In this document: in pieces, positions 3,541-60,608 of the stretch
How positions within the stretch are numbered: the stretch's first letter is position 1
How the letters are laid out: each line of letters opens with the position of its first letter
Assembly: GCA_964543035.1 (NCBI GenBank)
Contig: CAZIVL010000001.1
Coordinates: 45,714-109,713 of the forward strand
Reading direction: 5' to 3'
DNA length: 64,000 nucleotides
Origin: an uncultured Gammaproteobacteria bacterium
Lineage (GTDB): Bacteria > Patescibacteriota > Microgenomatia > CAZETR01 > Amesbacteraceae
Translations under genes and position numbers: made by a program
The notes under the pieces: model-generated
What the model saw: the letters and a program-made list of their open reading frames with translations, nothing else
Databases searched by the model: none
Told to the model about the DNA's origin: nothing

Positions 3541-4369
3541 GGGGGAAGTTGCGACATTTTTTATATACGTGTCTCATGACAAACTTCATTAGCTCGGATT
3601 TTTTATATTTTTTGTACTCACCTAGCACTTGTGGAATCGGGATTGCAGTTGGAGTGATGGTTGGGATTGGCGCCGTAGTCGGGGCAATTGTTGGTGTTGG
3701 TGTCTGTGTCGGAATTGGAGTTTCTGTAGGAGATGGGCTTGGTGTCAGAGTAGGCTCCAAAGTGGGTGTTGGTGTGACAGTCGGTGTCGCCGTAGGCGTC
3801 ATAGTTGGGACTGGAGTAGTTGCGACAAACAAACTATTCTGTGGGTCAGGTATATCTCGCAACGAAAAATCCACCGAGTTGTCATCGGTATCATCTTCTA
3901 CAGGGAGTCTCTCAATACTTTTGCCAGCAGCGGGTGCAGCCACAGCAGTTCCCTCAAATGTCGTAGCCGTCCCCATACCCACCAGATCTTCAGTAGAGTA
4001 GCTGCTCGTGCCGGTTTTTTTCTGTAGAGATATGAAACTGTTTGCAGTGATAGAGCTGCTACTCGCAGAATATACAAAGTCGGGTGTAACTGGAATAGTC
4101 GCATAGGCAGGATTGCCAATCAGCAGATAGCCCTGTGCTTTTATAACTCCAGTCATCGACGCTACCAGGTTAGTGCTCGCTCCCACTCGCAGCCTCCACC
4201 CAGTCAGGTCCACATCAGACAAAGTTGGGTTATATAGCTCTACAAACTCGTCCGACGCAACCCCTCCCCCTACCTGAATTTCTGAAATGACTACATGGTT
4301 TGTTGCTGCCCTCGCAACCCCCGGAAGCAAAAGAAGCACTATAAGAAAAACGGGCAATATTTTTCTCAC
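3515..4369 (-). CDS. Secreted lamin-tail-domain (LTD) protein with Pro/Thr-rich linker
   Basis: N-terminal signal peptide ([21 protein letters not shown]); LTD-like segment [12 protein letters not shown]…EFVELYNPT…DLTGWRL; long PT-rich low-complexity tail. Confidence 0.6.
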
Positions 4370-4429
4370 TAAGATTTATGCTAACCCCTTTTTTCAATTG
4401 TCGTCAACAACTAAAACCTAAAAACGTAA

Positions 4430-5089: not shown

Positions 5090-7234
5090 CTATGCAGCAG
5101 CCTGCACTTTTCCACTCTTTGCAATTATCCCCTCAGCAATGTTTCTAGGCACTTCGTCATAGTGAGATGGTTCCATATAGTAGGAGGCGCGGCCTTGGGA
5201 CAGTGAGCGCAGCTTGGTGGCATAACCAGACAGTTCAGCCAGAGGCACATGAGCATTGATGATAGTCAGATGTCCGCGCTTATCTGTGCCTTGAATAGCA
5301 GCTCTCTTAGATGATAGATCTCCAATCACGTCTCCCATAAATTCGTCTGGAGTGGAGACCTCCACTTTCATGACTGGTTCTAGGATGGTAGGTTCTGCGA
5401 TCTTGGCCGTGTGTTGGAAAGCCATGGATCCGGCGATCTTAAAGGCCATTTCTGAAGAGTCCACATCGTGGTAGGTTCCGTCAAAGAGGGTGATCTTGGT
5501 GTCAACGGTTGGGAATCCGGCCAAGACTCCGTTTTCCATGGCTTCCACGATTCCTTTTTCGATAGGAGCAATAAACTCTCCTGGAATAGCTCCACCTTTG
5601 ATTGCGTTTACAAACTCAAATCCTGCTCCGCGAGGTAGGGGCTCCATCTTGATCCAACAATGTCCATACTGTCCGCGACCTCCAGATTGGCGAATAAATT
5701 TACCCTCTCCTTCGGCGGCCTTTTTCACAGTTTCCTTGTAGGCCACTTGTGGAGCGCCGGTGGACGCTTCCACGTTAAACTCTCGCTTCATGCGGTCCAC
5801 CAGGATCTCCAGATGCAGCTCACCCATTCCAGAGATGATTGTCTGCCCTGTCTCGTGATTGGACTTGATGCGGAAAGTCGGATCTTCGTCAGACAGTTTG
5901 TTTAGAGCCAGACCCATCTTTTCTTGATCGGACTTTGTTTTTGGCTCAATAGCCAGTGAGATGACGGGTTCCGGGAAAGAGATTGACTCGAGTACAATTG
6001 GTGCCGCTTTTTCACACAGGGTGTTTCCGGTAGTTGTTTCACGCAGTCCCACGAGCGCCACGATCTCTCCCGCATAAGCAGCGTCGATCTCTTCGCGTTT
6101 GTTGGCGTGCATGAGAAGCATTCGGGAGATTCTTTCTTCTTTTTGTTTCGAGGCGTTCCACAGAGATTGTCCAGCCTTGAGTGATCCCGAGTATATTCGG
6201 ACATATGTCAGTCGTCCTACGTGGGGATCAGTCTGGATCTTGAAAGCCAGTCCAGCAAATTTTTCTTCATTGATAGTCTTGCGGCTTACTTCTTCTCCGG
6301 TTTGAGGATTAGTGCCACGGACATGATCCACATCGACTGGCGATGGCAGATATTCGACTACCGCGTCCAGCATTGGTTGCACACCTTTGTTGCGAAGTGA
6401 TGCTCCTGCATATACCGGGACAAGCTTGTAGGCAATCACGGCTCTTCGCATAGCCGCTTTCAGCTCAGCAACAGTGGGCTCTTCGCCGGCTAGGAATTTG
6501 TTCAAGAGGTCATCGTCAGTCTCAGAGATTTGCTCGATTAGTTTGGTTCGCCACTTTTCTACCGTATCTTTCAGGTCTTCGGGAATTGGTTGTTCTTCGT
6601 ATTTAGCACCAGTTTCATCACCCAGCCAGACCAAGGCTTTTCTCTCGAGTAGTAACACCACTCCTCTAAAAGTATTTTCAGCCCCGATCGGGTAAGCCAT
6701 GACAGCGGGGTTTGCTCCCAGTCTATCAATGATGGCTTTGATCGTGCCTTCAAAATTGGCTCCGAGCTTGTCGTTCTTATTGATAAATATAATTCGTGGT
6801 ACTTTGTATTTGTCGGCCTGTCTCCACACTGTTTCAGTCTGTGACTGCACTGTTTCTTCTGCGTCGAGTACCGTGACGGCTCCGTCCAAGACGCGTAGTG
6901 AGCGCTCGACTTCGGCCGTAAAGTCCACGTGTCCGGGAGTGTCGATCAGGTTGATGCGATATGAGCCGTGTTCTACTGGGCTGTTTACATCAGATACTGA
7001 CCAGAAGGTGGTTGTGGCCGCAGATACGATTGTGATTCCGCGCTCTTTTTCCTGAGCCATCCAGTCCATTTGCGTGTCACCTTCGTCGATGTCTCCGATC
7101 TTGTAGGATTTGCCAGTATAAAAAAGAATTCGTTCCGAAGTAGTCGTCTTTCCAGCGTCAATGTGCGCGATTATTCCAATATTACGCACCCGATCTTGCG
7201 GGACAATTCGATTTGTTGTTTTAATATCTGCCAT
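5090..7234 (-). CDS. fusA: Elongation factor G
   Basis: 714-aa ORF; AHIDAGKTT, DTPGHVDF, NKMD motifs; full EF-G domain order. Confidence 0.95.
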   Translation of the reverse strand: MADIKTTNRIVPQDRVRNIGIIAHIDAGKTTTSERILFYTGKSYKIGDIDEGDTQMDWMAQEKERGITIVSAATTTFWSVSDVNSPVEHGSYRINLIDTPGHVDFTAEVERSLRVLDGAVTVLDAEETVQSQTETVWRQADKYKVPRIIFINKNDKLGANFEGTIKAIIDRLGANPAVMAYPIGAENTFRGVVLLLERKALVWLGDETGAKYEEQPIPEDLKDTVEKWRTKLIEQISETDDDLLNKFLAGEEPTVAELKAAMRRAVIAYKLVPVYAGASLRNKGVQPMLDAVVEYLPSPVDVDHVRGTNPQTGEEVSRKTINEEKFAGLAFKIQTDPHVGRLTYVRIYSGSLKAGQSLWNASKQKEERISRMLLMHANKREEIDAAYAGEIVALVGLRETTTGNTLCEKAAPIVLESISFPEPVISLAIEPKTKSDQEKMGLALNKLSDEDPTFRIKSNHETGQTIISGMGELHLEILVDRMKREFNVEASTGAPQVAYKETVKKAAEGEGKFIRQSGGRGQYGHCWIKMEPLPRGAGFEFVNAIKGGAIPGEFIAPIEKGIVEAMENGVLAGFPTVDTKITLFDGTYHDVDSSEMAFKIAGSMAFQHTAKIAEPTILEPVMKVEVSTPDEFMGDVIGDLSSKRAAIQGTDKRGHLTIINAHVPLAELSGYATKLRSLSQGRASYYMEPSHYDEVPRNIAEGIIAKSGKVQAAA

Positions 7235-7258
7235 AGTGAGAAACTTCAGTTTCGAGAT

Positions 7259-7307
7259 ATATGAAAGGATCCATGAGCGTCAGCGAATGGTAGGTTTCCT
7301 TTCATAT
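7259..7307. repeat. Perfect 11-bp inverted repeat (ATATGAAAGGA / TCCTTTCATAT) around GGATCCATGAGCGTCAGCGAA; rearranged variant of the GTCATCCTGA/GGATCCAG repeat family
   Basis: Seen directly in the fusA–dnaJ divergent spacer; core TGAGCGTCAGCGAA resembles the family core TGAGCGAAGCGAA. Confidence 0.5.
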
Positions 7308-7431
7308 AAAACCTATCATTCAAAAAAATAAAGCTCTTCAGCTCTTTGTGATTCTACCAGAAGCTCAAGCTAGTCACAATCCTCATCAACACTAGAATCT
7401 TTAGCACTCCCGCGTTACAATTGCCACATAT

Positions 7432-8307
7432 ATGGCCACTAAGCGCGACTACTACGATATTTTAGGCGTCCAAAAGACAGCCACCGCCGCCGAGTTAAAG
7501 TCAGCTTATCGCAAGATGGCTCTCGAATGGCATCCAGATAGAAACAAATCCGCCGAGGCCGAAGCCAAGTTCAAAGAGATCAACGAAGCGTATCAAGTTT
7601 TATCAGATGCCAAGAAAAAAGCTACCTACGACCAGTTTGGTCATGCAGCCTTTGACCCAGCAGCAGGCGGCGGTTACAGCGGTGGCAATCCTTTTGCCGG
7701 CGGTTTCCGCCAGGGCCCCTTTACCTATTCATATAGTACTGGGGGAGACAATCCGTTCGGCGACATGGGCGGATTTTCCGATCCCTTCGAAATTTTTGAA
7801 CAATTTTTTGGCGGCCAAAATCCCTTTGGTAGACAAGCTCCCAGAAAAGCTCATTATTCACTTCGCATTCCTTTCATGACTGCAGTCAAAGGTGGCACAG
7901 AGGAAGTAAAAATAGATGGCAAGTCACATACGATCAAGATTCCCGCCGGCGCCGATACCGGCACCCACCTTAGGTTTACAGATTTTGATATCACTTTCCA
8001 AGTCGACGAGAGTCCCGACTTCAAAAGAGATGGCGCAGATGTCTATGTAGATCATCCCATTTCTTTTACCAAAGCCATTTTGGGAGGCGATACGACTACC
8101 AAGACTTTGGATGGCACTCTGAAGATCAAGATCCGCCCCGGCACTCAGCCCGGTACTGTAGTGAGACTTTCAGGCAAGGGGATAACCAAGATCAGTTCCT
8201 TCAAAAAAGACGATCACGGAGATCTCTATATTAGACTTATTATCAAAATGCCCGAACAGCTGTCCAAAAAACAAAAGCAACTTCTAGAGGAGTTTGACCA
8301 TAGTTAA
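7432..8307 (+). CDS. DnaJ-class co-chaperone lacking the zinc-finger domain (CbpA-like)
   Basis: N-terminal J domain (DYYDILGV…HPDRN), G/F-rich region, C-terminal DnaJ substrate-binding domains; no CxxCxGxG repeats. Confidence 0.8.
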
Positions 8308-8334
8308 TTTGTAAGTTAGATTACAATCAATCAA

Positions 8335-8535
8335 ATGGAATATCCACTGGGTTCTGTAGAAAAAGGCTTGATCGTAATCGCAATCGCAATCCCTCTTGCA
8401 ATATTTGGCACATTCATCGCAAATCCGCCAGATGTTGGAAAATGGTTCGTTGGTGAAGGCATAGCGGAAATGGTGGTATTAGCATCACTTTTAGTGGCAA
8501 TAGCGAGAACAGAACACAAGTTGGACATTGGTTAA
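8335..8535 (+). CDS. Small putative membrane protein
   Basis: 66-aa ORF with two hydrophobic helices; overlaps an equally long antisense ORF, so uncertain. Confidence 0.25.
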   Translation: MEYPLGSVEKGLIVIAIAIPLAIFGTFIANPPDVGKWFVGEGIAEMVVLASLLVAIARTEHKLDIG

Positions 8536-9008
8536 CGTTTGATAGATCTTAAGATCTCCACCCCACCCATTTCTGCTCGAAGGAGATTTTCATCATTAAT
8601 TTCTTCTATTTTTATCCACTCGGGCGCTTGAGCATCCCCATCTTCGACCTCATCAACAGTCAGCAGCTCAAAAGTTAATGGTTTACATAAAAAATAATAG
8701 ACATAAAAATTGGCTGCCACATTAGACGGATTCCAATAATAATTGCCCTCGCTAAATCTAACAAGTTTTACTATTTCGACTTCAATTCCAGTCTCTTCTT
8801 TTATTTCCCTTTTTAACCCTTCCTCAATTTCCTCACCTTCATCTATTGCCCCTCCTGGGAAGTTATATTTTTGAGCCGCCCGAGATTTGGCCACTAAAAC
8901 CTTTCCGTCGTGGATTATTACGCTATAAGCGGTCGGGCGGAAATACACTTCCGACTCCGGAATGTCCTTCGTCTTCTTGGGCCCGTACAACGTCAAACAC
9001 TGCACCAT
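8532..9008 (-). CDS. NUDIX hydrolase
   Basis: Nudix box GGAIDEGEEIEEGLKREIKEETG. Confidence 0.8.
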   Translation of the reverse strand: MVQCLTLYGPKKTKDIPESEVYFRPTAYSVIIHDGKVLVAKSRAAQKYNFPGGAIDEGEEIEEGLKREIKEETGIEVEIVKLVRFSEGNYYWNPSNVAANFYVYYFLCKPLTFELLTVDEVEDGDAQAPEWIKIEEINDENLLRAEMGGVEILRSIKR

Positions 9009-21304: not shown

Positions 21305-21490
21305 ATGGCACCCAAAAACAAGCTCATCAAAGGCAGTAGTATCCCTGTCGCATACCTTATTGATTACATCAAAGATGGATACACCATATCGGAGTTTCTT
21401 TCTTCCTATCCCTGGCTCAAAAGACAAAATGTGGAGAAGATTCTGGACGAGATAAAGCACAAGGAATTCTCGTTCGGACATGCCCAGTAA
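21305..21490 (+). CDS. DUF433-family small protein (putative antitoxin)
   Basis: 61 aa; …IPVAYLIDYIKDGYTISEFLSSYPWLKRQNVEKILDEI matches the DUF433 pattern. Confidence 0.55.
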   Translation: MAPKNKLIKGSSIPVAYLIDYIKDGYTISEFLSSYPWLKRQNVEKILDEIKHKEFSFGHAQ

Positions 21491-21869
21491 AAAGTCAGAT
21501 CTTCAACTATACGCCGATGAGTGTTTTCCGATTCCTTCCGTAACTTTTCTAAAATCACTTGGGTATTCAGTTATTCATGCATCAGATTTGGGTCACACTG
21601 CAGAGTCAGACAAATTTCACTACAAATTAACCCAAAAAATAAACCGTACACTAATTACTTTTGACCGAGATTTTTTAATATATAAGAATTCAAATCCCAT
21701 AAATCACCCAGGGATAATAGTCATATCCTGTGCACCATCGGAAATAAATCTCGTATGCAAAAAGTTTTTGTCAAAAATTTCAAAAAGCTCAGTCTCCGAC
21801 GCTTTATTGATAGTCACCAAAGACAAGATCACCAAATCAAAGCATGACGTCAAATCAGAAATAAAATAA
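21480..21869 (+). CDS. DUF5615/PIN-like (Mut7-C type) protein (putative toxin)
   Basis: 129 aa; LYADECFP…LGY start typical of DUF5615; 11-nt overlap with the DUF433 gene; AT-rich islet. Confidence 0.5.
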   Translation: MPSKKSDLQLYADECFPIPSVTFLKSLGYSVIHASDLGHTAESDKFHYKLTQKINRTLITFDRDFLIYKNSNPINHPGIIVISCAPSEINLVCKKFLSKISKSSVSDALLIVTKDKITKSKHDVKSEIK

Positions 21870-45063: not shown

Positions 45064-45211
45064 GTCATCCTGAACGCACCCCTGTCATCCTGAGCGTCCT
45101 GTACCACTCATATCACACTCGCTTTTTTATTGTCATCCTGGACGCCCTGTACCACTCATATCACACTCGCTTTTTTATTGTCATCCTGAACGCAGTGAAG
45201 GATCCAGTACC
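45064..45211 (+). repeat. Cluster of four GTCATCCTG[A/G] heads including a tandem 48-bp duplication (GTCATCCTGRGCGYCCTGTACCACTCATATCACACTCGCTTTTTTATT x2), ending in …GAAGGATCCAGTACC
   Basis: Seen directly; begins 5 nt after the rpsI stop; the 3' part encodes the C-terminus and stop of the minus-strand GIY-YIG gene. Confidence 0.85.
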
Positions 45212-45486
45212 GCCAGATCATTCCATCCAGGATTATTCATTTCAATCAATTCCAGTTTCTTTTGTCTCTTCCACCCCTTAATTTTTTTCTCCACTTCAAT
45301 CGCTTCCATCGGCCTATCAAACTCCTCAAAATAAACTAACATCTTCAAACTATATTTACTAGTAAACTCCGAAAACCCTCCCTGTCTGTGCTGCCAAATT
45401 CGCTTTACTAGATCTCCTGTCATCCCTACATACAACGTTCCGTTTCTCTTGTTAGTTACAATATATACCCAATATTTTTTATCCAC
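45181..45486 (-). CDS. GIY-YIG nuclease family protein (YhbQ/UPF0213-like)
   Basis: YWVYIV…NGTLYVGMTGDLVKRIWQH…; 101 aa; GTG start; flanked on both sides by repeat clusters. Confidence 0.7.
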   Translation of the reverse strand: MDKKYWVYIVTNKRNGTLYVGMTGDLVKRIWQHRQGGFSEFTSKYSLKMLVYFEEFDRPMEAIEVEKKIKGWKRQKKLELIEMNNPGWNDLAVLDPSLRSG

Positions 45487-47082: not shown

Positions 47083-47727
47083 TTGGTGATTAAGAAATTT
47101 CTTATTCTTCTTGGCATTATTTTATTTCTAGTCTGGTTTGTCCCCACCACATCTAGGTTTCCTGTCCAAGATCTCGCTCCCGAAGATCTGGTGAAGGTCC
47201 AAGAGCTATTTGCAAAAAACAAATTAGATTTAGACAATTTTTACCCAACCCGAGTAATATCAAGCGAGTATGGCAACTTTCACGTCCGGGGGCATCAGGT
47301 CTTCAAAGGTGTGACAGTCTACCAAGATTTGATTTTTCATTTTGATGACAACGGAGACTACGAGTCTATTTCAGGATATCCAGCCGCAAATATTTCCTTT
47401 TCAAACAATCCCCAGATTACTCTTCCAGACACATTCGGATATCAGTATTTTCGTCCGATCCCGTTCACCCCAAAGCCATTCATACCTTCATATATAGCCA
47501 GTCTTAGATCCCGCTTTCTCATGGGCTTTCCCTACTTCTTCTTTCCTCAGCATGCGTCTCTTGCGATTTATGATCGTCATTCTGGAGAAAGTTACATGAG
47601 CCAAGACTGGACTCTGGTATGGGAGATCGTACCCTTTAAATTCGGCAATTACCCCCAAGTCTTGATCGATGCCTTTTCAGGCAAAGTTCTTTACTACGAC
47701 AACGGCATTCGGACTGGTACTTATTGA
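47083..47727 (+). CDS. Membrane-anchored hypothetical protein
   Basis: 214 aa; N-terminal TM. Confidence 0.4.
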   Translation: MVIKKFLILLGIILFLVWFVPTTSRFPVQDLAPEDLVKVQELFAKNKLDLDNFYPTRVISSEYGNFHVRGHQVFKGVTVYQDLIFHFDDNGDYESISGYPAANISFSNNPQITLPDTFGYQYFRPIPFTPKPFIPSYIASLRSRFLMGFPYFFFPQHASLAIYDRHSGESYMSQDWTLVWEIVPFKFGNYPQVLIDAFSGKVLYYDNGIRTGTY

Positions 47728-48410
47728 CTGGGTACTGCTACACTAAATACGTGTCCAAGAAGTTTGGTTTGGCAGTACTGACTGCTGGAGTAATGGCCGC
47801 AGCCGGCATGGGATTTAAGAATTTTGTAAACCCTTATGAGACAGTTTACAAAATAGCCGATGGGGACACTGTGATATTAGAAAACAACAAACAAGCAGTC
47901 AGATTATTTGGTATAGATTCCCCCGAACCAGAGTATTGTTACGGCGCTGAGTCGACGCGAAGACTTGACCAGCTTCTAAAGAAACGCAAAGTTCAGATCA
48001 AAGAACCGGTCGTGGACAAGTTTGGTCGCATTGTGGCGCTGGTTTATGTAGACGGCAAATCCATAAATGAGGCCATGATTCGAGAAGGTTTTGCCGCTTA
48101 CAGGAGCGAGCCGGGGAGTGAAAAAGAGACCATGAAAGCGGCGCACGAATATGCCAAGACAAACAAGATTGGTATTTATTCCAGTGCTTGTTCAGACGAG
48201 GCGCCAACAGATCCCAAATGTGATATCAAAGGCAACCACGATTTAGATCGCAACGAATTTGTATATCTTTTACCTGAATGTCCATATTATGGAGTGGTAA
48301 ATGTTCGTCGTTTCGAAGGGGACCAGTGGTTCTGTAGTGAGAAGGAAGCGAGAAAAGCCGGCTTCACCATTTCCCCCGCCTGCTCCATGGGCACAAATCG
48401 CTCAAATTAA
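47724..48410 (+). CDS. Membrane-anchored thermonuclease (SNase-like) with Cys-rich C-terminal extension
   Basis: SNase motifs (…DGDTV…RLFGIDSPE…, …GRIVALVYVDGKSINEAMIREGFA); N-terminal TM; C-terminal ~70 aa with 5 Cys. Confidence 0.7.
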   Translation: MTGYCYTKYVSKKFGLAVLTAGVMAAAGMGFKNFVNPYETVYKIADGDTVILENNKQAVRLFGIDSPEPEYCYGAESTRRLDQLLKKRKVQIKEPVVDKFGRIVALVYVDGKSINEAMIREGFAAYRSEPGSEKETMKAAHEYAKTNKIGIYSSACSDEAPTDPKCDIKGNHDLDRNEFVYLLPECPYYGVVNVRRFEGDQWFCSEKEARKAGFTISPACSMGTNRSN

Positions 48411-49169
48411 CTTCAACTGCTTCGTCTCGGTCGTGCGATAACTACTTAGTACACTCAACACCTCGTGCAACTTATTTTCAGGAAATAAGTGTTTTGGATA
48501 TATCTCGATTATTTCGATGTTATGTTTCTTGGCCAGTTCCAGTTTTCTATTCTTTAGCTGAGAATAAGCAGCAAGCTGTCCATCGAGTCCAAAAAATTCA
48601 ATCCATTTATCTCCAACTACAAAATCTACAGTAAATCCTTCGTCACCAGGATACGGAGCCCATCTTTGGTGATTAATTTTCTTACAACTCAACCAGTCGT
48701 CAATAATCATTTCAGATACTGAATCGCATACATGTCCATCCCGGGCTATATACTTTTTCGAAAATAATACCGGGTTTGGATCAAATCCTGCAGCCACAAT
48801 AGCCTTATTCCAAGTCCCAAAACGCCCTCTGGTTGCATGATAGTACTTAAACTCTCTTTTTAGAGGGATCCTCCCATTAGCCTTATAAAATTCTTGTATT
48901 CCATGTAGGATCACTTCTTTTGGGACGATCTGACTGTCACTATGACACTTGGCTGAACAATATCTTTTCCTACTTACAAACTCCTTGTTACAAAACTCAC
49001 ACTTTTTTCTCACCCCTGGATGCTTTGGGAATTTTGTGTTATTCACAGTTACAGCGCAACTACGCGAACAGTAATAGGAAACACACCTCAAGTCACTCAC
49101 TTTTCTATAAAAAACATTGCCACAATTTGGCCTACTACATACCAGGGTAATTCCATTACTTTTCCTCAT
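48402..49169 (-). CDS. Zn-finger protein with homing-endonuclease-associated (GRFGTWNKAIVAAGF) motif and C-terminal PD-(D/E)xK-like domain; putative nuclease
   Basis: Multiple CxxC pairs at N-terminus; C-terminal …VDFVVGDKWIEFFG… resembles restriction-endonuclease-like fold. Confidence 0.4.
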   Translation of the reverse strand: MRKSNGITLVCSRPNCGNVFYRKVSDLRCVSYYCSRSCAVTVNNTKFPKHPGVRKKCEFCNKEFVSRKRYCSAKCHSDSQIVPKEVILHGIQEFYKANGRIPLKREFKYYHATRGRFGTWNKAIVAAGFDPNPVLFSKKYIARDGHVCDSVSEMIIDDWLSCKKINHQRWAPYPGDEGFTVDFVVGDKWIEFFGLDGQLAAYSQLKNRKLELAKKHNIEIIEIYPKHLFPENKLHEVLSVLSSYRTTETKQLKLI

Positions 49170-53561: not shown

Positions 53562-53568
53562 CATCATT

Positions 53569-53598
53569 GTCATCCTGAGTCGCAGCGAAGGATCCAGT
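53569..53598 (+). repeat. Repeat family copy R8: GTCATCCTGAGTCGCAGCGAAGGATCCAGT
   Basis: Seen directly, 7 nt after the rny stop. Confidence 0.85.
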
Positions 53599-53740
53599 CT
53601 TCTCTCCATAATTCATAATTCCAGATTCATAATTCAAATTTAATCCCATATATCCATTTTTTCTCTTGACATCACTTCGGCTTTAATGTAACTTCACCAA
53701 CAGAAATGATATACAGATTTTTGAGAGGGGGTGAGCGTAA

Positions 53741-54013: not shown

Positions 54014-54018
54014 AAGTT

Positions 54019-54049
54019 GTCATCCTGAGCCGCCGCGAAGGATCCAGGC
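54019..54049 (+). repeat. Repeat family copy R9: GTCATCCTGAGCCGCCGCGAAGGATCCAGGCTCAGG (with CCTGAGCC/GGCTCAGG inverted repeat)
   Basis: Seen directly, 5 nt after the hup stop. Confidence 0.85.
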
Positions 54050-54178
54050 TCAGGCAATAAATATCAGATACACATTGCCAAGAGATAATGGCATTGTAGA
54101 ATAAGCAAGTTCCCACGAAAGAATATAAAAACGAGGCGCAAGCCTCGTTTTTGGTCCCAGATAGAATAAAATAGATCC

Positions 54179-54970
54179 ATGCGCTTATTCCTCACTTTTT
54201 GCCACGCCACTTTTCAAGACGCTTCAGCATACCGTCTAGAAAGTTTGTTGTGGTTTGTCATTGAGTCCATTCCCATCCTTATCATGACTAGCTTGTGGAA
54301 GAGTCTGGAGATCTCAGGCCACATTTCCCCCGCTCAAGCCGGAAATCTCATTCTCTACTACGTCTTGTCGCTTTTGATAGCCAGACTCGCTTCAACTCAT
54401 TTTGAAGAATGGTTTTCTCTGGAGATCAAAGATGGCAAGATCAATTCAAGGTTGGTAAAGCCTTTCGCTTTCAAGACTTATCTACTAGCCGATTCCACAA
54501 TCTATCGATTAATGGGGACTTTCTACACTCTGCCTATATTTGTCCTCTTGGCTCCCTTGTATCTCCCCGCATTGACAGAAAATTTTTCGCCTGTAAAAAC
54601 ATTTTTATTTTTCTTTTTGATACTAGTATCTTTTTTCCAGAAATTTTTTATCAGCTGGCTCATTGGAATTTCGGCCTTTTGGTTTGACCAGACATATTTT
54701 TTGACCCATCTCAAATGGTTGTTAGAGGGTCTCATGGGAGGCGGATGGCTACCTATGACCTTTTTCCCTCTCTGGTGGCAGACAGTTTCCAGATTTACCC
54801 CTTTTTATTACTGGTATTTTTTCCCCATCCAAGTCTACATTACCCCCATGCCCAATTCAGAAATTATTGAAGGGATATTTATCAGTCTTGTGTGGCTTAC
54901 GATATTGATTTGGTTTGGCAGAGTTATTTGGCAGTCTGGTCTCAAGCGCCATTCCGCAGTCAGTGGTTAG
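54179..54970 (+). CDS. ABC-2 family transporter permease, type A paralog 1
   Basis: 6-TM pattern; LVKP motif; conserved C-terminal …GLKRHSAVSG; paralogous to 55784 and 59027 ORFs. Confidence 0.65.
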   Translation: MRLFLTFCHATFQDASAYRLESLLWFVIESIPILIMTSLWKSLEISGHISPAQAGNLILYYVLSLLIARLASTHFEEWFSLEIKDGKINSRLVKPFAFKTYLLADSTIYRLMGTFYTLPIFVLLAPLYLPALTENFSPVKTFLFFFLILVSFFQKFFISWLIGISAFWFDQTYFLTHLKWLLEGLMGGGWLPMTFFPLWWQTVSRFTPFYYWYFFPIQVYITPMPNSEIIEGIFISLVWLTILIWFGRVIWQSGLKRHSAVSG

Positions 54971-54973
54971 TAT

Positions 54974-55771
54974 ATGAATTTGACTCGATATCCAAAAATA
55001 TTATTCTTCTTTATTCGTCAGTCTTGGATGGCTGCGGCCGAATATCGAATAAACTACATCATTTGGTTGGTCATAGATATCGCATGGACACTCATGGATC
55101 TGATCATTACGACGGCTTTGCTAGGAACAACACAAGTCGTTGGTACCTGGGATCTTCCCAGAGCACTTATCGCCATAGGTGTATTTCGAATTATGGTTCT
55201 TCCTATTTGGAGTTGGTTTTTCCCGGCCTTTTCAGAGCTTCCCAGATTAGTTAGCGAAGGCAGGCTAGACCTGTTACTCAGTAAGCCCATCAATTCTCAG
55301 TTTCTAGCCTCTATTCAGAAGTTTAGTTTCAACCAATGGCCGTCAGTCTTGATTGGCATTGCCTACATTTATCACGGGGCCCAAACCGGGGGAATAGCTA
55401 TCACTTTGTCCCAGATATTCTTATTTATTTTGCTCATGATCATATCCTCGATTCTGGTTTATGGGGTTTATTTTTCCACCATGACATTGGTGTTATATGT
55501 TCAGAGACTGAACAATATTCCCTATCTTTTTACCGAGAGTTATTATGCTGCCGGCCGCTATCCGCCCCAGATCTACGGAGACCTATTACGTCGCGCGTTA
55601 GTCAGCGTTTTCCCACTGGCTCTCATTACGACTATTCCCGCCGAAAGTCTCTTCTTTCCCATAAACATTTCCCAGATCATGTATTTCAACTTACTGGCCG
55701 TAGTCTTTCTCCTAGTCAGCAGTTTCCTCTGGCACAACGGCCTCCGCCACTACTCTTCTGCCTCTTCATAG
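54974..55771 (+). CDS. ABC-2 family transporter permease, type B paralog 1
   Basis: Paralogous to 56584 and 59829 ORFs; ends …HNGLRHYSSASS. Confidence 0.65.
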   Translation: MNLTRYPKILFFFIRQSWMAAAEYRINYIIWLVIDIAWTLMDLIITTALLGTTQVVGTWDLPRALIAIGVFRIMVLPIWSWFFPAFSELPRLVSEGRLDLLLSKPINSQFLASIQKFSFNQWPSVLIGIAYIYHGAQTGGIAITLSQIFLFILLMIISSILVYGVYFSTMTLVLYVQRLNNIPYLFTESYYAAGRYPPQIYGDLLRRALVSVFPLALITTIPAESLFFPINISQIMYFNLLAVVFLLVSSFLWHNGLRHYSSASS

Positions 55772-55783
55772 TAATATTAGAGG

Positions 55784-56581
55784 ATGAAAAGTTTGCGTAT
55801 TCTTGTGGTCCTCATCAAAGCCAATTGGCAGAGCTATCTCCAGTATCGCCTCCATTCACTTCTGTGGGTCATAAACGGATCCATTGGCCCATTTTTGGCC
55901 ATGGCTATCTGGATACTTATTTCGACCAGTAGAGACGTAGGTTTGAATTCCACTCAGATCGGCACCTACTTTTTCATGAGCTTGTTAGTCTCCCGACTTA
56001 CCCAAGTCTGGACTTTGGACAAAGTTGGGCATTGGATCAAGGATGGTCATATCTCAAATGTATTGGTCAAGCCTCATAGCTATGTATTAGAAAATCTAGC
56101 CGAGCAGTTTGGTCAAAAATCGTCTCGTCTATCCATGATATTTATTTTCATGCTCGCCGCCTGGCCGCTACTATCCAGACACGTCAGTTTGAGTTTTGAC
56201 GCGGGTAGGCTTTGGTTGTCTGTCCTCGCCGTCATTCTGGGTTTTATCCTATTGTTTTCATTTGAACATGTCTTGGCCTTGCTCGCCTTCTGGACCGACG
56301 AGATAACAGGGGTTGCCAGAGTCCACGACACTCTCCAGGGATTATTTAGTGGGTATCTGGTCCCCATCGCTTTTATGCCGGCAGTTCTAAAAAGCATCAT
56401 GACCTATTACCCAGCCAGATTTGTATTGTCTTTCCCTTTGGAGATTCTGATCATCGAGATTCCATATCCCGAGATCATAAAGGGGTTTCTCATCTGTGTA
56501 TCCTGGATAGTAGGACTCGTAATTACATATAGGTTGGTGTTCAAAATCGCTGTTAAAAAATATAGTTCCGTCGGCACATAA
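55784..56581 (+). CDS. ABC-2 family transporter permease, type A paralog 2
   Basis: Same architecture; ends …KKYSSVGT. Confidence 0.65.
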   Translation: MKSLRILVVLIKANWQSYLQYRLHSLLWVINGSIGPFLAMAIWILISTSRDVGLNSTQIGTYFFMSLLVSRLTQVWTLDKVGHWIKDGHISNVLVKPHSYVLENLAEQFGQKSSRLSMIFIFMLAAWPLLSRHVSLSFDAGRLWLSVLAVILGFILLFSFEHVLALLAFWTDEITGVARVHDTLQGLFSGYLVPIAFMPAVLKSIMTYYPARFVLSFPLEILIIEIPYPEIIKGFLICVSWIVGLVITYRLVFKIAVKKYSSVGT

Positions 56582-56583
56582 CC

Positions 56584-57369
56584 ATGACTGCAAAAAGAGT
56601 GATCAAATTGCTGTTTGTATATTCCAGGATTAGTCAGATGACGGCCTGGCAGCATCGTTTTGGTTATTTTTTCCGTCTATTCAGAGTCGTCCTCGATCTG
56701 GGTATTTCGCTCATTTTTATAAACATTATTTTCCTAAAGACTCCCATGCTTGGCACTTGGTCCCAGCCCGAGGCCTTTCTGATCTACGCGCTTTATCAGA
56801 TCGTCGATTGCATATATGTATTTTTCTGCGGAGACAGCTTCCGAAATATGGGGATAGATATCAGGAGAGGCAATCTCGATGGATTTTTTACAAAGCCTGT
56901 CGACAGCCAGTTCATTGTCAGTTTCCGGACTATCTTTCCCTCAAGTATTTATAGAGTGATGTTGGCATTTGGTATCTTGTACTACGCCCTCGCAAAGCTG
57001 GCAGTGAATCCAGATATAAATAGCATCATCTGGTTCATCGTTAGCATGATCTCTGCCGTTCTTATCCACTATGCTCTAGTGTTCATGGCCGCGACCACAG
57101 CTTTCTGGTCCAGTGGGGGAGAAGCAGCAGAGATTATGAATACCGTCTTTTCCATTAGTAAATATCCCCTCGATGTCTTCAAGCGCCACACTATACTATT
57201 GCTCACCGTAATTCCTCTAATATTTATTACAACTGTTCCCGCAAAAGTTTTGTTAGACAAGCCAGGTCAGCTCCACTATTTCGCACCCTTCCTCGCAATT
57301 ATTTTATTGATTCTCTCGCGCAAGTTCTGGCACCACGCCCTCCGCCATTATTCTTCCGCCTCGTCTTAA
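56584..57369 (+). CDS. ABC-2 family transporter permease, type B paralog 2
   Basis: Ends …HHALRHYSSASS. Confidence 0.65.
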   Translation: MTAKRVIKLLFVYSRISQMTAWQHRFGYFFRLFRVVLDLGISLIFINIIFLKTPMLGTWSQPEAFLIYALYQIVDCIYVFFCGDSFRNMGIDIRRGNLDGFFTKPVDSQFIVSFRTIFPSSIYRVMLAFGILYYALAKLAVNPDINSIIWFIVSMISAVLIHYALVFMAATTAFWSSGGEAAEIMNTVFSISKYPLDVFKRHTILLLTVIPLIFITTVPAKVLLDKPGQLHYFAPFLAIILLILSRKFWHHALRHYSSASS

Positions 57370-57623
57370 TAGACATCATCGTGGGATCCCACATCAATTA
57401 GTATCACTTCATTCTCAGAAGCAAAAACAAAAATTACCCGTTTCTTATATGATATCGAAAAAGAAAATTGCCCCCTTAGTTTGCCAGTCAAAGCATGGGT
57501 TTTTAGTTTAGGATTGTATACGTCTTTAGATAACCAGCCCACTCTCTCGTCCAAGTTCTTTCTTTCCTCGTTCGATAATTTCCTCGCACTTTTTTTAAAA
57601 TGCGAAGAGACGCCAATCTTCAT
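57366..57623 (-). CDS. RelE/ParE-superfamily toxin
   Basis: 85 aa; …LKTHALTGKLRGQFSFSISYKKRVIFVF…ILIDVGSHDDVY pattern. Confidence 0.65.
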   Translation of the reverse strand: MKIGVSSHFKKSARKLSNEERKNLDERVGWLSKDVYNPKLKTHALTGKLRGQFSFSISYKKRVIFVFASENEVILIDVGSHDDVY

Positions 57624-57629
57624 ATTTGG

Positions 57630-57914
57630 TTACTTCAATAGATCAGAAACTTTCTGGCCAGGCTTTAGCCAGGTAGTTTTACCCTTTTTGTATTCAGATA
57701 TAGCCTCGTCGCGAACTCTGAGAAGATAATCCTCTTCTAAATGTTTCAACCTTTCAGCCTGAGCATTGTATGCACTAGGAGACATCAGAACCACATCGGG
57801 TACACCATTACTGACCACAACCATAGGTTCAGAAGTAGCTCTGACTTTATCAGCAAGCGTTCTATACTTCCTTTGCAGATCGGCTACAGTTGTAATCATG
57901 GGTATCAAGTTCAT
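57630..57914 (-). CDS. Phd/YefM-family antitoxin
   Basis: 94 aa; N-terminal …TVADLQRKYRTLADKV…EPMVVVSNGVPDVVLMSPSAYN… typical of Phd/YefM; upstream of toxin with 6-nt spacing. Confidence 0.65.
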   Translation of the reverse strand: MNLIPMITTVADLQRKYRTLADKVRATSEPMVVVSNGVPDVVLMSPSAYNAQAERLKHLEEDYLLRVRDEAISEYKKGKTTWLKPGQKVSDLLK

Positions 57915-58000
57915 ATAATTATCATATTACTATATATATGACCAATCGTCAATATTTGCCTAGTTGATAAACTAACAGTTTGAAGTGATAATCAATCTAC

Positions 58001-58984
58001 ATGCCAGTCATTGAAGTCAAAGGTCTCCAAAAGCACTTCCAGGTTCATCAAAAAGAGCCCGGTTTGGCCGGCTCCTTTAAGTCTCTGTTTCACAGAAAGT
58101 ACAATCTCGTAAAGGCCGTAGACAATGTGTCTTTTGAGATCGGCGAGGGCGAGCTAGTAGGCTTCATAGGTCCAAATGGCGCCGGCAAGACCACGACTTT
58201 GAAGACCTTATCCGGTCTTCTATACCCCAGTGCTGGTCACGTCTCAGTCTTGGGCTACACACCCTGGGACCGAAAGCCCGCATTTCAAAAGCAGTTTTCT
58301 CTGGTCATGGGCCAAAAAAATCAGCTCTGGTGGGATCTGCCAGCTATTGAGTCGTTTATCCTAAACAAAGAAATATACGAAGTCCCAGACGCTCAGTACA
58401 AAAAGACCCTAGACGAGTTAGTGGAGCTTTTGGATGTCAAAGATATTTTAAAGGTCCAGGTACGCAAATTGTCTTTGGGCCAAAGGATGAAAATGGAGCT
58501 CATAGCCGCCCTCATTCATTCTCCCAAGATTCTCTTTTTAGACGAGCCCACCATCGGTCTAGACGTAGTCATGCAAAAAAAGATGCGTGATTTCATAAAA
58601 GCATATAACCAAAAGTTCAACGCCACTATCATCCTGACTAGTCACTACATGGACGATGTCAAAGAATTATGTGAGCGCGTCATCATCATCGATCACGGTC
58701 GCATTCTCTTCGATGGCAAGCTGGCAGACATTATCAAGAAGTTTGCCGATCACAAGCTGATTACGGTTGTGTTCAGTAAAGCCGTAGACGAAAAAGTTTT
58801 GGCAAAGATGGGAACCGTCAAAGAGTTTGAGGCTCCCCGGGCTGTCATTTCTGTAAAAAGAGACAAAGCCACCAAGATTGCCGCCAAGCTTTTGGAGGAT
58901 CTTCCCGTGGAGGATCTCAACATCGAAGAACCCAAGATCGAAGACATCATCCGTGAAGTCTTCACCGGCAAGGATTTTGCCTAA
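58001..58984 (+). CDS. ABC transporter ATP-binding protein
   Basis: Walker A GPNGAGKTT, signature LSLGQRMK, Walker B LFLDEP. Confidence 0.85.
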   Translation: MPVIEVKGLQKHFQVHQKEPGLAGSFKSLFHRKYNLVKAVDNVSFEIGEGELVGFIGPNGAGKTTTLKTLSGLLYPSAGHVSVLGYTPWDRKPAFQKQFSLVMGQKNQLWWDLPAIESFILNKEIYEVPDAQYKKTLDELVELLDVKDILKVQVRKLSLGQRMKMELIAALIHSPKILFLDEPTIGLDVVMQKKMRDFIKAYNQKFNATIILTSHYMDDVKELCERVIIIDHGRILFDGKLADIIKKFADHKLITVVFSKAVDEKVLAKMGTVKEFEAPRAVISVKRDKATKIAAKLLEDLPVEDLNIEEPKIEDIIREVFTGKDFA

Positions 58985-58991
58985 CAGTTGT

Positions 58992-59024
58992 GTCATCCTG
59001 AGCCTCAGCGAAGGATCCAGGCTC
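58992..59024 (+). repeat. Repeat family copy R10: GTCATCCTGAGCCTCAGCGAAGGATCCAGGCTCAT
   Basis: Seen directly, 7 nt after the ATPase stop and ending 2 nt before the next start. Confidence 0.85.
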
Positions 59025-59026
59025 AT

Positions 59027-59827
59027 ATGAAAAAATATTTCACAATCTTCTCTCTCTCCTTTCAAAACGAATTTACATATCGCCTAAATTTTATTCTCTG
59101 GCGTCTTAGAAATGTCCTTCGCATTCTCATGGTTATCACTCTCTGGAACGTAGTTCTTGCGGGCAGAGGTCATGCTTTTGGTTACACTTCTGACCAACTG
59201 ATTGCTTATGTTTTTCTGGCCTCCGTAGTCCAGACATTAGTCATGGCCTCTCCTTCAAATGACAATATAGGTGGAGAGATATCAGGAGGAGATCTATCCA
59301 ACTATTTAGTTAAGCCCATCAGCTACATCAAATATTGGTTCACCAGAGACATGGCCAGCAAGCTTCTCAATATTATTTTTGCAGTTGCCGAGCTTACAAT
59401 TCTTCTTGCTTTATTCCGACCAGATATCACTTTCCCATTCACAGTGAATAACTTTTTTCTCGGTGTTCTTGCTTTGGGCTTAGCCATTACCTCTTATTTC
59501 TTTATCTCAAAAATGGCAGTATTCATCGCTTTTTGGATTCCCGAAAACACCTGGGGTTTTATGTTTATAGTTCTAGTATTTCTGGAGATGCTGTCAGGAG
59601 TCATCTTTCCTCTCGATGTTTTACCTACTGCGATTCGCTCAATAGTCGATCTCACCCCATTTCCATATCTCATTTATTATCCCATCGGTATTTATGTAGG
59701 CAAATTTACATCACCTCAAGTATTTTGGATCATATTAAAATCGATGATTTGGGTTGCCGCCGGCTTGTTCTTATCCAGTCGTATCTGGCGAAAGGGCTTA
59801 AAAGTTTATGCATCGGAGGGAAAGTAG
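59027..59827 (+). CDS. ABC-2 family transporter permease, type A paralog 3
   Basis: ORF 58988.. trimmed to MKKYFTIFSL (upstream part is the repeat). Confidence 0.65.
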   Translation: MKKYFTIFSLSFQNEFTYRLNFILWRLRNVLRILMVITLWNVVLAGRGHAFGYTSDQLIAYVFLASVVQTLVMASPSNDNIGGEISGGDLSNYLVKPISYIKYWFTRDMASKLLNIIFAVAELTILLALFRPDITFPFTVNNFFLGVLALGLAITSYFFISKMAVFIAFWIPENTWGFMFIVLVFLEMLSGVIFPLDVLPTAIRSIVDLTPFPYLIYYPIGIYVGKFTSPQVFWIILKSMIWVAAGLFLSSRIWRKGLKVYASEGK

Positions 59828-59828
59828 T

Positions 59829-60608
59829 ATGAGATATTTAAAAATTATCAATATATATTTTGTAAATTCACTTCAATCAATCATTGCAAATCCTATGGCA
59901 TTCTGGATATTTTTCATTAGTAAGTTTATTCGTTACGGATTATTTTTTATGTTTCTCTTTTTCCTGTCCTCATCTATTGGTTCTGTGGGTGGATATACCT
60001 CCACACAGATGCTTACTTTTTATCTAGTCTTCAGTTTGATAGACACCACCGGACAGATGTTTTACCGCGAGGTCTACCGATTTCGCCCATTAGTCCTCAA
60101 TGGGGGATTTGATGGTGTCTTGGCAAAGCCATTTCCTGTATTACTTAGAGTTCTGGTTGGGGGACCAGATTTTATAGATATGGGGATATTGGCTATCCTT
60201 GTTTTAGTTCTACTCTACATGTTGGCATTCGTCATTCATCCCACTGCTACCCATCTGTTTATCTTTATTTTGCTGTTTCTCAATTCGCTCATTATTTCTA
60301 CTGCTATTCACATCTTTGTCTTGGGTATCGGCATCATGACTTTATCCGTGGATCATCTCATCATGATTTACAGAGACCTATCAGCCTTACTTCGTATTCC
60401 CATCGATTTTTTCTCTGATTCTATGCGAGCTCTTTTCACTTTTGTTATCCCACTGGGCGTAATGTTTACATTTCCCGCCAAAGGACTCATGGGTCTTCTC
60501 TCGTGGCAAAACATCATTCTGTCAGTAACTATTTCAGTTGCAGTTCTTTATCTATCCCTTCGATTTTGGAAGTACTCCCTCAAGCATTACCAATCCGCCA
60601 GCAGCTAG
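59829..60608 (+). CDS. ABC-2 family transporter permease, type B paralog 3
   Basis: Start MRYLKIIN; ends …KHYQSASS. Confidence 0.65.
   Translation: MRYLKIINIYFVNSLQSIIANPMAFWIFFISKFIRYGLFFMFLFFLSSSIGSVGGYTSTQMLTFYLVFSLIDTTGQMFYREVYRFRPLVLNGGFDGVLAKPFPVLLRVLVGGPDFIDMGILAILVLVLLYMLAFVIHPTATHLFIFILLFLNSLIISTAIHIFVLGIGIMTLSVDHLIMIYRDLSALLRIPIDFFSDSMRALFTFVIPLGVMFTFPAKGLMGLLSWQNIILSVTISVAVLYLSLRFWKYSLKHYQSASS

Follow-up and report, generated by a model that had tools for sequence, protein, structure and literature searches.

A multi-pair array of EVE/DUF990-family permeases around one ABC ATPase in a Microgenomates genome

The 64,000-nt stretch of contig CAZIVL010000001.1 analyzed here (the window) carries, at 54179-60608, six permease genes of two types, A and B, around a single ATP-binding cassette (ABC) ATPase gene. 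In the open reading frame (ORF) list the order is A1B1-A2B2-[Phd/YafQ-RelE toxin-antitoxin (TA) module, minus strand]-ATPase-A3B3. We lean, with modest confidence, towards reading the locus as a modular type V exporter set of the Ethyl Viologen Exporter (EVE)/DUF990 family, wherein one nucleotide-binding domain (NBD) would serve three A/B modules and the upstream modules would be exchangeable cassettes. The evidence that carries this reading comes from related arrays in the candidate phyla radiation (CPR). All eight of them (8/8) have exactly one ATPase with two, three or four permease pairs; in two (L004 and L018), four upstream permease genes reach the ATPase on the same strand, the spacing being 20-24 nt. 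Among named organisms, Microgenomates group bacterium Gr01-1014_16 is the closest relative.

Two permease types and one ATPase

The genes of the array are the following.

54179-54970, plus strand: A1, A-type EVE/DUF990 permease, 263 aa, variable pair P1
54974-55771, plus strand: B1, B-type permease, 265 aa, pair and orthogroup P1; starts 3 nt past A1; PF06182 124.6 bits
55784-56581, plus strand: A2, A-type permease, 265 aa, pair P2; PF06182 62 bits
56584-57369, plus strand: B2, B-type permease, 261 aa, pair P2; PF06182 149.3 bits; 104 homologues
57366-57623, minus strand: YafQ-like toxin (RelE/ParE superfamily), 85 aa
57630-57914, minus strand: antitoxin of the Phd/YefM family, 94 aa, upstream of the toxin
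58001-58984, plus strand: ABC ATPase, 327 aa, DrrA/NatA/ABCA-like NBD with a C-terminal domain
59027-59827, plus strand: A3, A-type permease, 266 aa, fixed core pair P3; PF06182 69.6 bits
59829-60608, plus strand: B3, B-type permease, 259 aa, core pair P3; PF06182 109.6 bits; tail nucleotides not conserved

Each gene position given in the first-pass annotation recurs in the ORF list, and the layout it had described (pair 1, pair 2, an opposite-strand TA module, ATPase, pair 3) is borne out by that list together with the family matches. Spacing within and between permease pairs is 1-12 nt. All six permease genes are intact, of family length and with the invariant motifs kept, and have full-length orthologues at ~50% divergence.

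By all-versus-all BLASTP and phmmer, the six window permeases sort cleanly into the two alternating types that had been proposed. Thus, A proteins match one another at E 8e-16 to 1e-26 (24-27% identity) and B proteins at E 1e-7 to 5e-26; every A-versus-B comparison has E >= 0.002. At the profile level, the homology of A and B spans the whole protein (hhalign 99.7%, E 4e-25, 12% identity), and they appear to be two anciently diverged permease types.

Hidden Markov model (HMM) searches refine the earlier ABC-2 label to the precise family, EVE/DUF990 (PF06182, ABC2_membrane_6, formerly DUF990; TCDB 3.A.1.141), to which we assign the permeases. PF06182 matches five of the six at 62-149 bits (cut-off 22); A1 has no Pfam match, being missed by this model at the same cut-off. 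A1 is placed in the family by its phmmer matches to A2 and A3 (E 1e-22 to 1e-26), by its 63%-identical orthologue P0107, which carries PF06182, by the profile-profile comparison above (99.7%) and by the fold of its model, which is the same. Its orthologues are found in L017 (63% identity, P0107), L002 and L004, which are among the related loci listed below. The type system of the EVE family is Synechocystis EvrA (ATPase) with the permeases EvrB and EvrC (PMC5417439; PMC13366656), and such systems are usually encoded by a natA/drrA-like ATPase gene together with one COG4587 and one COG3694 permease gene (PMC6003355). That one ATPase with one pair is the norm, as the first-pass annotation held, agrees with TCDB 3.A.1.141, with the natA-COG3694-COG4587 operons and with the non-CPR loci L007/L008 and L009, where this single-pair layout is present. 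The window permeases share only 25-33% identity with non-CPR family members, and their homologues carry the name 'viologen exporter family'.

AlphaFold2 models were made of B2 (predicted local distance difference test score, pLDDT, 93.9; predicted template modelling score, pTM, 0.91) and A1 (pLDDT 90.3). Foldseek matched both to the transmembrane domains (TMDs) of Wzm, KpsM, TarG, ABCG2/G25, ABCH and NosY in the PDB, with probability ~1.0 and template modelling (TM) scores of 0.5-0.66 (0.62-0.66 for A1 against the Wzm/KpsM-like fold). The A and B permeases are accordingly modeled with the type V (ABC-2; Wzm/KpsM/TarG/ABCG-like) exporter fold. Its elements in the two models are an N-terminal amphipathic interface helix, six transmembrane helices (TM1-TM6) and re-entrant helices between TM5 and TM6, with the N-terminal helix and the TM2-TM3 loop cytoplasmic. 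The permease profile searched against PDB sequences gave zero matches even at E 10. Six columns are invariant across all six paralogues, and three of these, in the pattern G-x-[LIF]-x-x-x-x-x-KP (also given as G..L...L.KP), lie in the cytoplasmic TM2-TM3 loop. This loop is where the NBD-coupling helix of type V exporters sits, and all six permeases therefore appear to keep the expected NBD docking element.

The ATPase matches ABC_tran (PF00005) at 97.8 bits. Its best NCBIfam match is the drrA subfamily (215 bits, below the cut-off of 312 for that model), and among PDB structures it comes closest to ABCA NBDs and 4YER. A scan of all six frames for Walker A and the ABC signature LSxGQ found it to be the sole ABC ATPase in the window, and its orthologues are present in all arrays (473-676 bits). 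One promoter-like site lies directly before it.

57964-57992, plus strand: promoter-like site at the right edge of the TA insert (TTGATA-17-GATAAT), 9 nt upstream of the ATPase start codon ATG

This site fits 10/12 consensus positions; such sites in the region are not above shuffled expectation, which makes it weak evidence of a promoter.

Related arrays and the sharing of the ATPase

A profile search for related loci returned one genome locus and seven metagenome loci, and the ORFs of the loci collected were classified with the seven window proteins. The array sample comes to ~9 genomes; the distribution outside the clade rests on L006, L007, L009, L012, L023 and L024. The arrays share the neighborhood recA-recX-rny-HU ... 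miaA, and are arranged as follows.

L017 (closest relative): HU-A1B1-AzBz-[85-aa + PIN TA (VapBC)]-ATPase-A3B3-miaA
L002 = L005: A1B1-[DUF5678 + aspartyl-protease-like pair]-A2B2-[second pair of this kind, on the minus strand]-ATPase-A3B3-miaA
L004: HU-A2B2-A1B1-ATPase-A3..., without insert, 20-nt gap before the ATPase
L018: HU-A2B2-A4B4-ATPase-A3B3, without insert
L016/L011: A4B4-[MNT + HepT TA]-A2B2-[Phd-like + PIN TA (VapBC), plus a 225-aa gene]-AyBy-ATPase-A3B3-miaA, four pairs
L019/L020: AB-[Sua5]-AB-ATPase
L021/L022: recA-recX-rny-HU-ATPase-AB-AB

Copy number, which the first-pass annotation had proposed to check by synteny, varies from two to four pairs around one ATPase in these eight arrays. 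By the same annotation, the shared-ATPase proposal would weaken if the ATPase of relatives lay apart from pairs 1-2. The outcome favors the proposal: L004 and L018 run uninterrupted, and these insert-free arrays look like the ancestral operon. Side-by-side A and B genes recur in every related locus. All permease genes in the related arrays are full length at ~50% amino-acid divergence, which argues that they are under purifying selection.

Neighbor-joining (NJ) trees of the A and of the B proteins return the same orthogroups, and within the window A and B each give ((1,2),3). This congruence argues that pairs evolve as units.

P1 orthogroup: window pair 1, L017-1, L002-1, L004-2
P2 orthogroup: window pair 2, L002-2, L004-1, L016-2, L018-1; more distantly L012, L006, L019-1
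P3 orthogroup: always downstream of the ATPase, directly after it in the window, L017, L002, L004, L016 and L018, and as the second downstream pair in L021
P4 orthogroup: L018-2, L016-1
Singleton pairs: L017-2, L016-3, L019-2

The sequences point to six or more pair lineages that diverged anciently, with two to four of them present in any one genome. The ATPase and P3 appear as a fixed core, and the upstream slots differ in kind, order and number. For example, L017 is without P2 and an unrelated pair fills the P2 slot; P2 is kept at 270-320 bits in genomes much more distant than L017 (A2 orthologues in L002, L004, L016 and L018 score 270-309 bits). P2 is also the pair nearest to canonical single-pair systems. 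The 'triplicated' permease module of the first-pass annotation thus stands as three pairs but not as a recent duplication: the pairs are ~25% identical, each has its own orthologues, and their number is 2-4 in relatives.

One might suppose that the upstream pairs are redundant or decaying and have no distinct role, the locus being a normal one-pair EVE exporter. A1 has indeed drifted below the Pfam threshold, and P1 orthologues score 100-240 bits versus 240-320 bits for P2 and P3 in the more distant L002, L004, L016 and L018. However, the six genes are intact in all the respects noted above, the A1 model is a confident one, and P2, an upstream pair, is the one closest to the canonical systems. 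We regard decay as very improbable.

Sharing of the NBD by all three pairs, a proposal read from gene order, is well supported by synteny. The NBD with the downstream A3B3 (P3) would be the conserved core transporter, and the most likely partner for the docking of A1B1 (P1) and A2B2 (P2) would be a dimer of that NBD too. Such a dimer, together with any of the three A/B heterodimers, would give three alternative exporters of differing specificity; that the three pairs differ in substrate is a presumption from this scheme. The upstream modules would be exchangeable A+B cassettes in this Microgenomates (CPR) clade, with two to four pairs drawn from at least six lineages in varying order, and the P3 core would stay constant while the accessory modules swap over evolutionary time.

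Having proposed a shared NBD, we would note several points that weigh against it. First, the link of the ATPase to pairs 1-2 is read from gene order. Second, orphan A/B pairs without a neighboring ATPase occur elsewhere (L006, L012, L023 and L024), so trans-encoded partners are possible in the EVE family. Third, the opposite-strand TA module of the window would uncouple pairs 1-2 from ATPase transcription. Fourth, the NJ trees behind the orthogroups are simple ones without support values. An alternative would be that only A3B3 uses the neighboring ATPase and that pairs 1-2 are driven by an ATPase encoded elsewhere, the clustering being paralogue adjacency. The orphan pairs of L006, L012 and L023 speak for it, as does the TA insert that parts pairs 1-2 from the ATPase in the window; evrA, evrB and evrC of Synechocystis are reportedly not in one operon (Prosecka et al. 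2009), which counts on the same side. However, eight independent arrays each embed exactly one ATPase among two to four pairs, and in L004 and L018 the upstream pairs are only 20-24 nt from it on the same strand. L019 and L021 likewise combine two pairs with one ATPase, the ATPase lying at opposite array ends. Furthermore, no second ABC ATPase was found in the 64 kb scanned of the 508-kb contig, and CPR genomes are small. We consider a remote ATPase for pairs 1-2 unlikely, and keep to the shared NBD in what follows.

The settings of the orphan pairs are varied. L006 (4631-6216) and L012 (1769-3347) are distant CPR genomes, each with a single P2-like orphan pair on a contig without ATPase; one of the two pairs is flanked by recA and recX and the other by tsaD and efp. 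In L023, a large non-CPR genome, the orphan A/B pair (7130-8786 on a 5.6-Mb contig), likewise without ATPase, lies between MNT-HEPN (nucleotidyltransferase/HEPN) modules and adjoins methyltransferase, ParB-like and GmrSD genes, a defence-island-like setting.

Inserted modules, the B-gene tail and intergenic elements

The RelE/Phd module reported on the opposite strand of the window is classed, on its family matches, as a type II TA system with a Phd/YefM antitoxin and a toxin that is YafQ-like within the RelE/ParE superfamily. For the antitoxin the matches are to PhdYeFM (PF02604; 42.2 bits against a cut-off of 29.8) and to TIGR01552; for the toxin they are to YafQ_toxin (PF15738; 30.9 bits, marginal to the cut-off of 30) and to TIGR00053 (E 1e-6). 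The two genes, both on the minus strand, are 6 nt apart and convergent to B2, with whose stop codon that of the toxin shares the palindrome TTAA at 57366-57369. A second copy of the toxin was not found within the window. The insert most likely splits an ancestral operon, once continuous as A-B-A-B-ATPase-A-B, into A1B1A2B2 and ATPase-A3B3, which would now be two transcription units.

Six small two-gene inserts are seen in four genomes, and all are at cassette borders (pair/pair or pair/ATPase), none inside a pair. They belong to four families: Phd/YafQ, VapB-like/PIN, MNT/HepT and DUF5678/aspartyl-protease-like. At the B2/ATPase junction the TA differs between lineages. In the gene tables of the insert-bearing loci, none of these modules is listed within the 5-10 kb of flanking DNA.

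Two observations on TA-like pairs are set apart here. The two L002 modules (1573-2197 and 3819-4424) are copies of one arrangement, DUF5678 with a retropepsin-like aspartyl protease, at two borders and in opposite orientations; their proteases are 25% identical, and the module is TA-like or selfish in behavior and outside recognized TA families. In the window, another TA-like pair at 21305-21869, a DUF433 gene (61 aa) overlapping a DUF5615 PIN-like gene (129 aa), lies between RNase J and a 98-aa ORF.

The borders at which the inserts sit follow the 3' ends of B genes. The last ~25-33 nt of these genes (..ALRHYSSASS and the stop) are nearly identical DNA even between ~25%-identical paralogues. 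The motif was located at the following sites.

55740-55767, plus strand: B-tail motif at the B1 3' end (..LRHYSSASS and the stop), 1 mismatch to the motif and 3 to the 20-nt clade core
57338-57365, plus strand: B-tail motif at the B2 3' end, exact pattern match, 3 mismatches to the core; the TA module abuts it
L016 1717-1736, 3340-3359, 5001-5020 and 5729-5748; L002 3801-3820 and 4449-4468; L017 5472-5491: tail motif sites in relatives

The tail peptide is conserved family-wide. Identity of synonymous codons was scored among sequences sharing the consensus residue in 18 B genes of six genomes. It is at codon-usage expectation in 35 conserved B columns outside the tail. In the tail (last ~8 codons), observed versus expected identity is 0.69/0.18 for L, 0.87/0.19 for R, and 0.46 and 0.52 against 0.19 for two S columns, with CTC in 15/18 and CGC in 14/15 sequences. 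The same codon test on A genes gave no synonymous-site signal. Mismatches to the 20-nt core number 0-4 where a variable cassette belongs to an array with inserts. They number 5-7 in L004 and L018, which have no insert, 5-10 in the fixed P3 (9 in the B3 tail) and 8-15 outside the clade; the tail peptide is the same in L004 and L018 despite the degraded motif DNA.

The proteins of the L016 and L017 VapBC modules share 74% and 60% amino-acid identity, and the modules are placed after B genes of different orthogroups. Between the two loci, DNA identity is ~0.4 along the B bodies; some 50 nt short of the B stop it rises to 0.78, and across VapBC it remains at 0.55-0.82. This jump indicates a recombination breakpoint in the B tail. 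Furthermore, 22-25-nt copies of the tail mark the right border of three inserts, each at p < 0.005.

L016 3340-3359: exact 20-mer after MNT/HepT
L016, 3' end of the PIN ORF: tail copy (..HSSSASS and the stop)
L002 4449-4468: tail copy

The second of these involves a PIN (VapC-like) ORF at L016 5336-5752, which reads into a degenerate B-tail copy; its L017 orthologue ends in ..QSPSSS and the stop, and the L016 ORF looks like a fusion to the border motif.

Together with the variation in pair content and order and the lineage-specific TA at the junction, the breakpoint supports the first-pass view of the locus as recombinationally active. The B tail may be where mobile TA modules, and probably also whole A+B cassettes, cross over or attach; shuffling by recombination at this motif is what we infer from the border sequences. 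Cassette borders just past the conserved B 3' tail would then be landing places of selfish TA modules. Taken one step further, the arrays might represent an undescribed cassette system: exchangeable A+B pairs and TA modules, delimited by a ~25-33-nt recombination site doubling as the B coding tail, would re-equip a fixed ATPase/core exporter with different specificity modules. We offer this only tentatively. Added to the points raised earlier are two that concern exchange. The window TA is without a right-hand tail copy, so the recombination-site model rests on relatives; and no recombinase was seen next to the arrays in the related loci gene tables or the window ORFs tested, a search that was not exhaustive.

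In a rival account, the tail copies would be relics of pairs deleted when the TA modules arrived, tail conservation would reflect an RNA or translation function, and ordinary duplication and deletion would explain how the arrays vary. In its favor, two CCUCC runs (anti-Shine-Dalgarno-like) are present in the motif, and no recombinase is seen near the arrays in the gene tables and window ORFs covered. The tail peptide being conserved family-wide, some copies could be relics. A significant right-hand copy was not found at three of the six inserts, namely the window TA (p 0.43), the L017 VapBC and L002 insert 1. However, random deletion is unlikely to have left three independent relics that all keep the same 22-33 nt, reach as far as the stop and have no B-like sequence upstream. 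Motif preservation follows the presence of inserts, not the peptide; the L016/L017 homology breakpoint is located at the tail; and no conserved structure is predicted in the tail RNA. We doubt the relic account, and retain the tail as a candidate exchange site.

Three other explanations of the tail were tried and rejected. RNAalifold predicted no conserved RNA structure (0 base pairs in nine aligned tails). A phage att site was rejected as the core has no exact match in viral contigs, and larger B pseudogene remnants at the right-hand copies were rejected as the upstream translation is not B-like.

A further intergenic element is a repeat family, TTGTCATCCTGAGCCNCAGCGAAGGATCCAGGCTC, with at least 10 intergenic copies in the window, all on the plus strand and mostly just past stop codons.

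58992-59020, plus strand: repeat copy inserted precisely between the stop codon of the ATPase and the start codon of A3
53566-53602, 54016-54052 and 58989-59025, plus strand: repeat copies
17840, 18881, 26084, 31951, 45177, 45515 and 45554, plus strand: weaker repeat copies

Close copies start at 53569 and 54019, with 0 expected by chance. The repeat fills the 42-nt ATPase/A3 spacer; ATPase and A3 abut or overlap in relatives, and the repeat was not found in the related loci. The copy between ATPase and pair 3 that the first-pass annotation had taken as a sign of local recombination is thus present, but its family is window-wide and not specific to this locus, so the copy is hardly informative here. 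A role as ATPase/A3 terminator was discarded, as there is no T-run and the hairpin is weak (z -0.2 to -2.1). A GIY-YIG nuclease gene (45181-45486, minus strand) has several copies clustered around it and might mobilize them.

Upstream of the array lies a hairpin.

54126-54153: strong A-run/T-run hairpin of the bidirectional terminator type, downstream of HU and 25 nt ahead of A1

It has -17.9 kcal/mol and z = -4.0, and 0/200 shuffles were as stable; its role is either to terminate HU transcription or to act as a leader of the attenuator type for the permease genes. A promoter-like TTGCCA-16-TAGAAT precedes it (region 54075-54153). Upstream of natA-COG3694-COG4587 operons, ppGpp riboswitches occur (PMC6003355); a riboswitch or other known RNA in the present locus was rejected, as Rfam at E <= 1 gave nothing relevant. 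Farther upstream, a staphylococcal-nuclease-like gene (47724-48410) and a gene for an HNH_repeat protein (48402-49169, minus strand), homing-endonuclease-associated, sit just before the DUF1189/UPF0259/recA block.

Probable function and comparison with known systems

The substrates are probably toxic cationic or amphiphilic compounds or envelope components. By analogy with EvrABC and LanFEG-type immunity transporters, the most likely job would be expelling toxic cationic/amphiphilic compounds; the alternative, by analogy with Wzm, KpsM and TarG, would be export of envelope lipids or glycoconjugates. Seven to nine genes are given to one exporter family in minimal CPR genomes, in a conserved housekeeping neighborhood and with modules that vary, which hints at an important, diversifying function, for instance in toxic-compound protection or envelope export. 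The EVE/DUF990 family is widespread yet almost uncharacterized, with no solved structure and one genetic study.

EvrABC of Synechocystis PCC 6803 (COG4586 + COG4587 + COG3694) is the closest parallel, with two DUF990 permease types as in the window and one DrrA/NatA-like ATPase, to which the window ATPase would correspond on its best, sub-cut-off drrA match. It exports viologens and quaternary ammonium cations, as known from Synechocystis genetics (PMC5417439; PMC13366656; PMC10469934), and among Patescibacteria evrABC homologues were noted only in Ca. Microgenomatia in a wastewater study (PMC10469934). Unlike EvrABC, which has one A/B pair per ATPase, the array described here has three (two to four in relatives), ~25% identical and variable in content, with TA modules between them. 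Among systems of similar make-up, LanFEG-type immunity transporters combine one ATPase with two different permeases.

The sharing proposed here resembles that of the multitask NBDs MsmX, MsmK and MsiK, where one ATPase serves several membrane modules. However, those are type I sugar importers, and the gene for their shared ATPase usually stands by itself, far from the permease operons, whereas the present array is of a type V exporter with all genes clustered. Group II ECF (energy-coupling factor) transporters, in which an EcfAA'T module is shared by several membrane modules, are also importers. NBD multitasking is reported only for carbohydrate importers (PMC7658222). If the NBD is indeed shared, the multitask principle would extend to exporters, and the arrays would offer a natural system for how one NBD recognizes different TMDs.

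Wzm-Wzt, KpsMT, TarGH and ABCG2/G25 have the TMD fold modeled for A and B; the window ATPase is nearest to ABCA/DrrA-type NBDs. Wzm, KpsM and TarG are homodimers from one TMD gene, whereas here the permeases would pair as A/B heterodimers, and none of the type V exporters with solved structures is known as a multi-pair array.

As an analogy only, integron arrays likewise have co-oriented modules with short conserved ends, interspersed TAs and varying content. The array is not an integron. An IntI integrase or attI was not found at the arrays in the gene tables of related loci and the window ORFs tested (the search was not exhaustive), and integron attC is structured and imperfectly palindromic, whereas the B-tail motif is coding and non-palindromic, with 0 RNAalifold pairs. 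The tail motif and its flanking duplicates would give a concrete example of TA homing to conserved gene ends and of operon module shuffling. If true, the cassette reading would make this the first multitask NBD in an ABC exporter, combined with an integrase-less, integron-like shuffling of membrane modules. The multi-pair, cassette-like array is a new form of a known, poorly studied exporter family.

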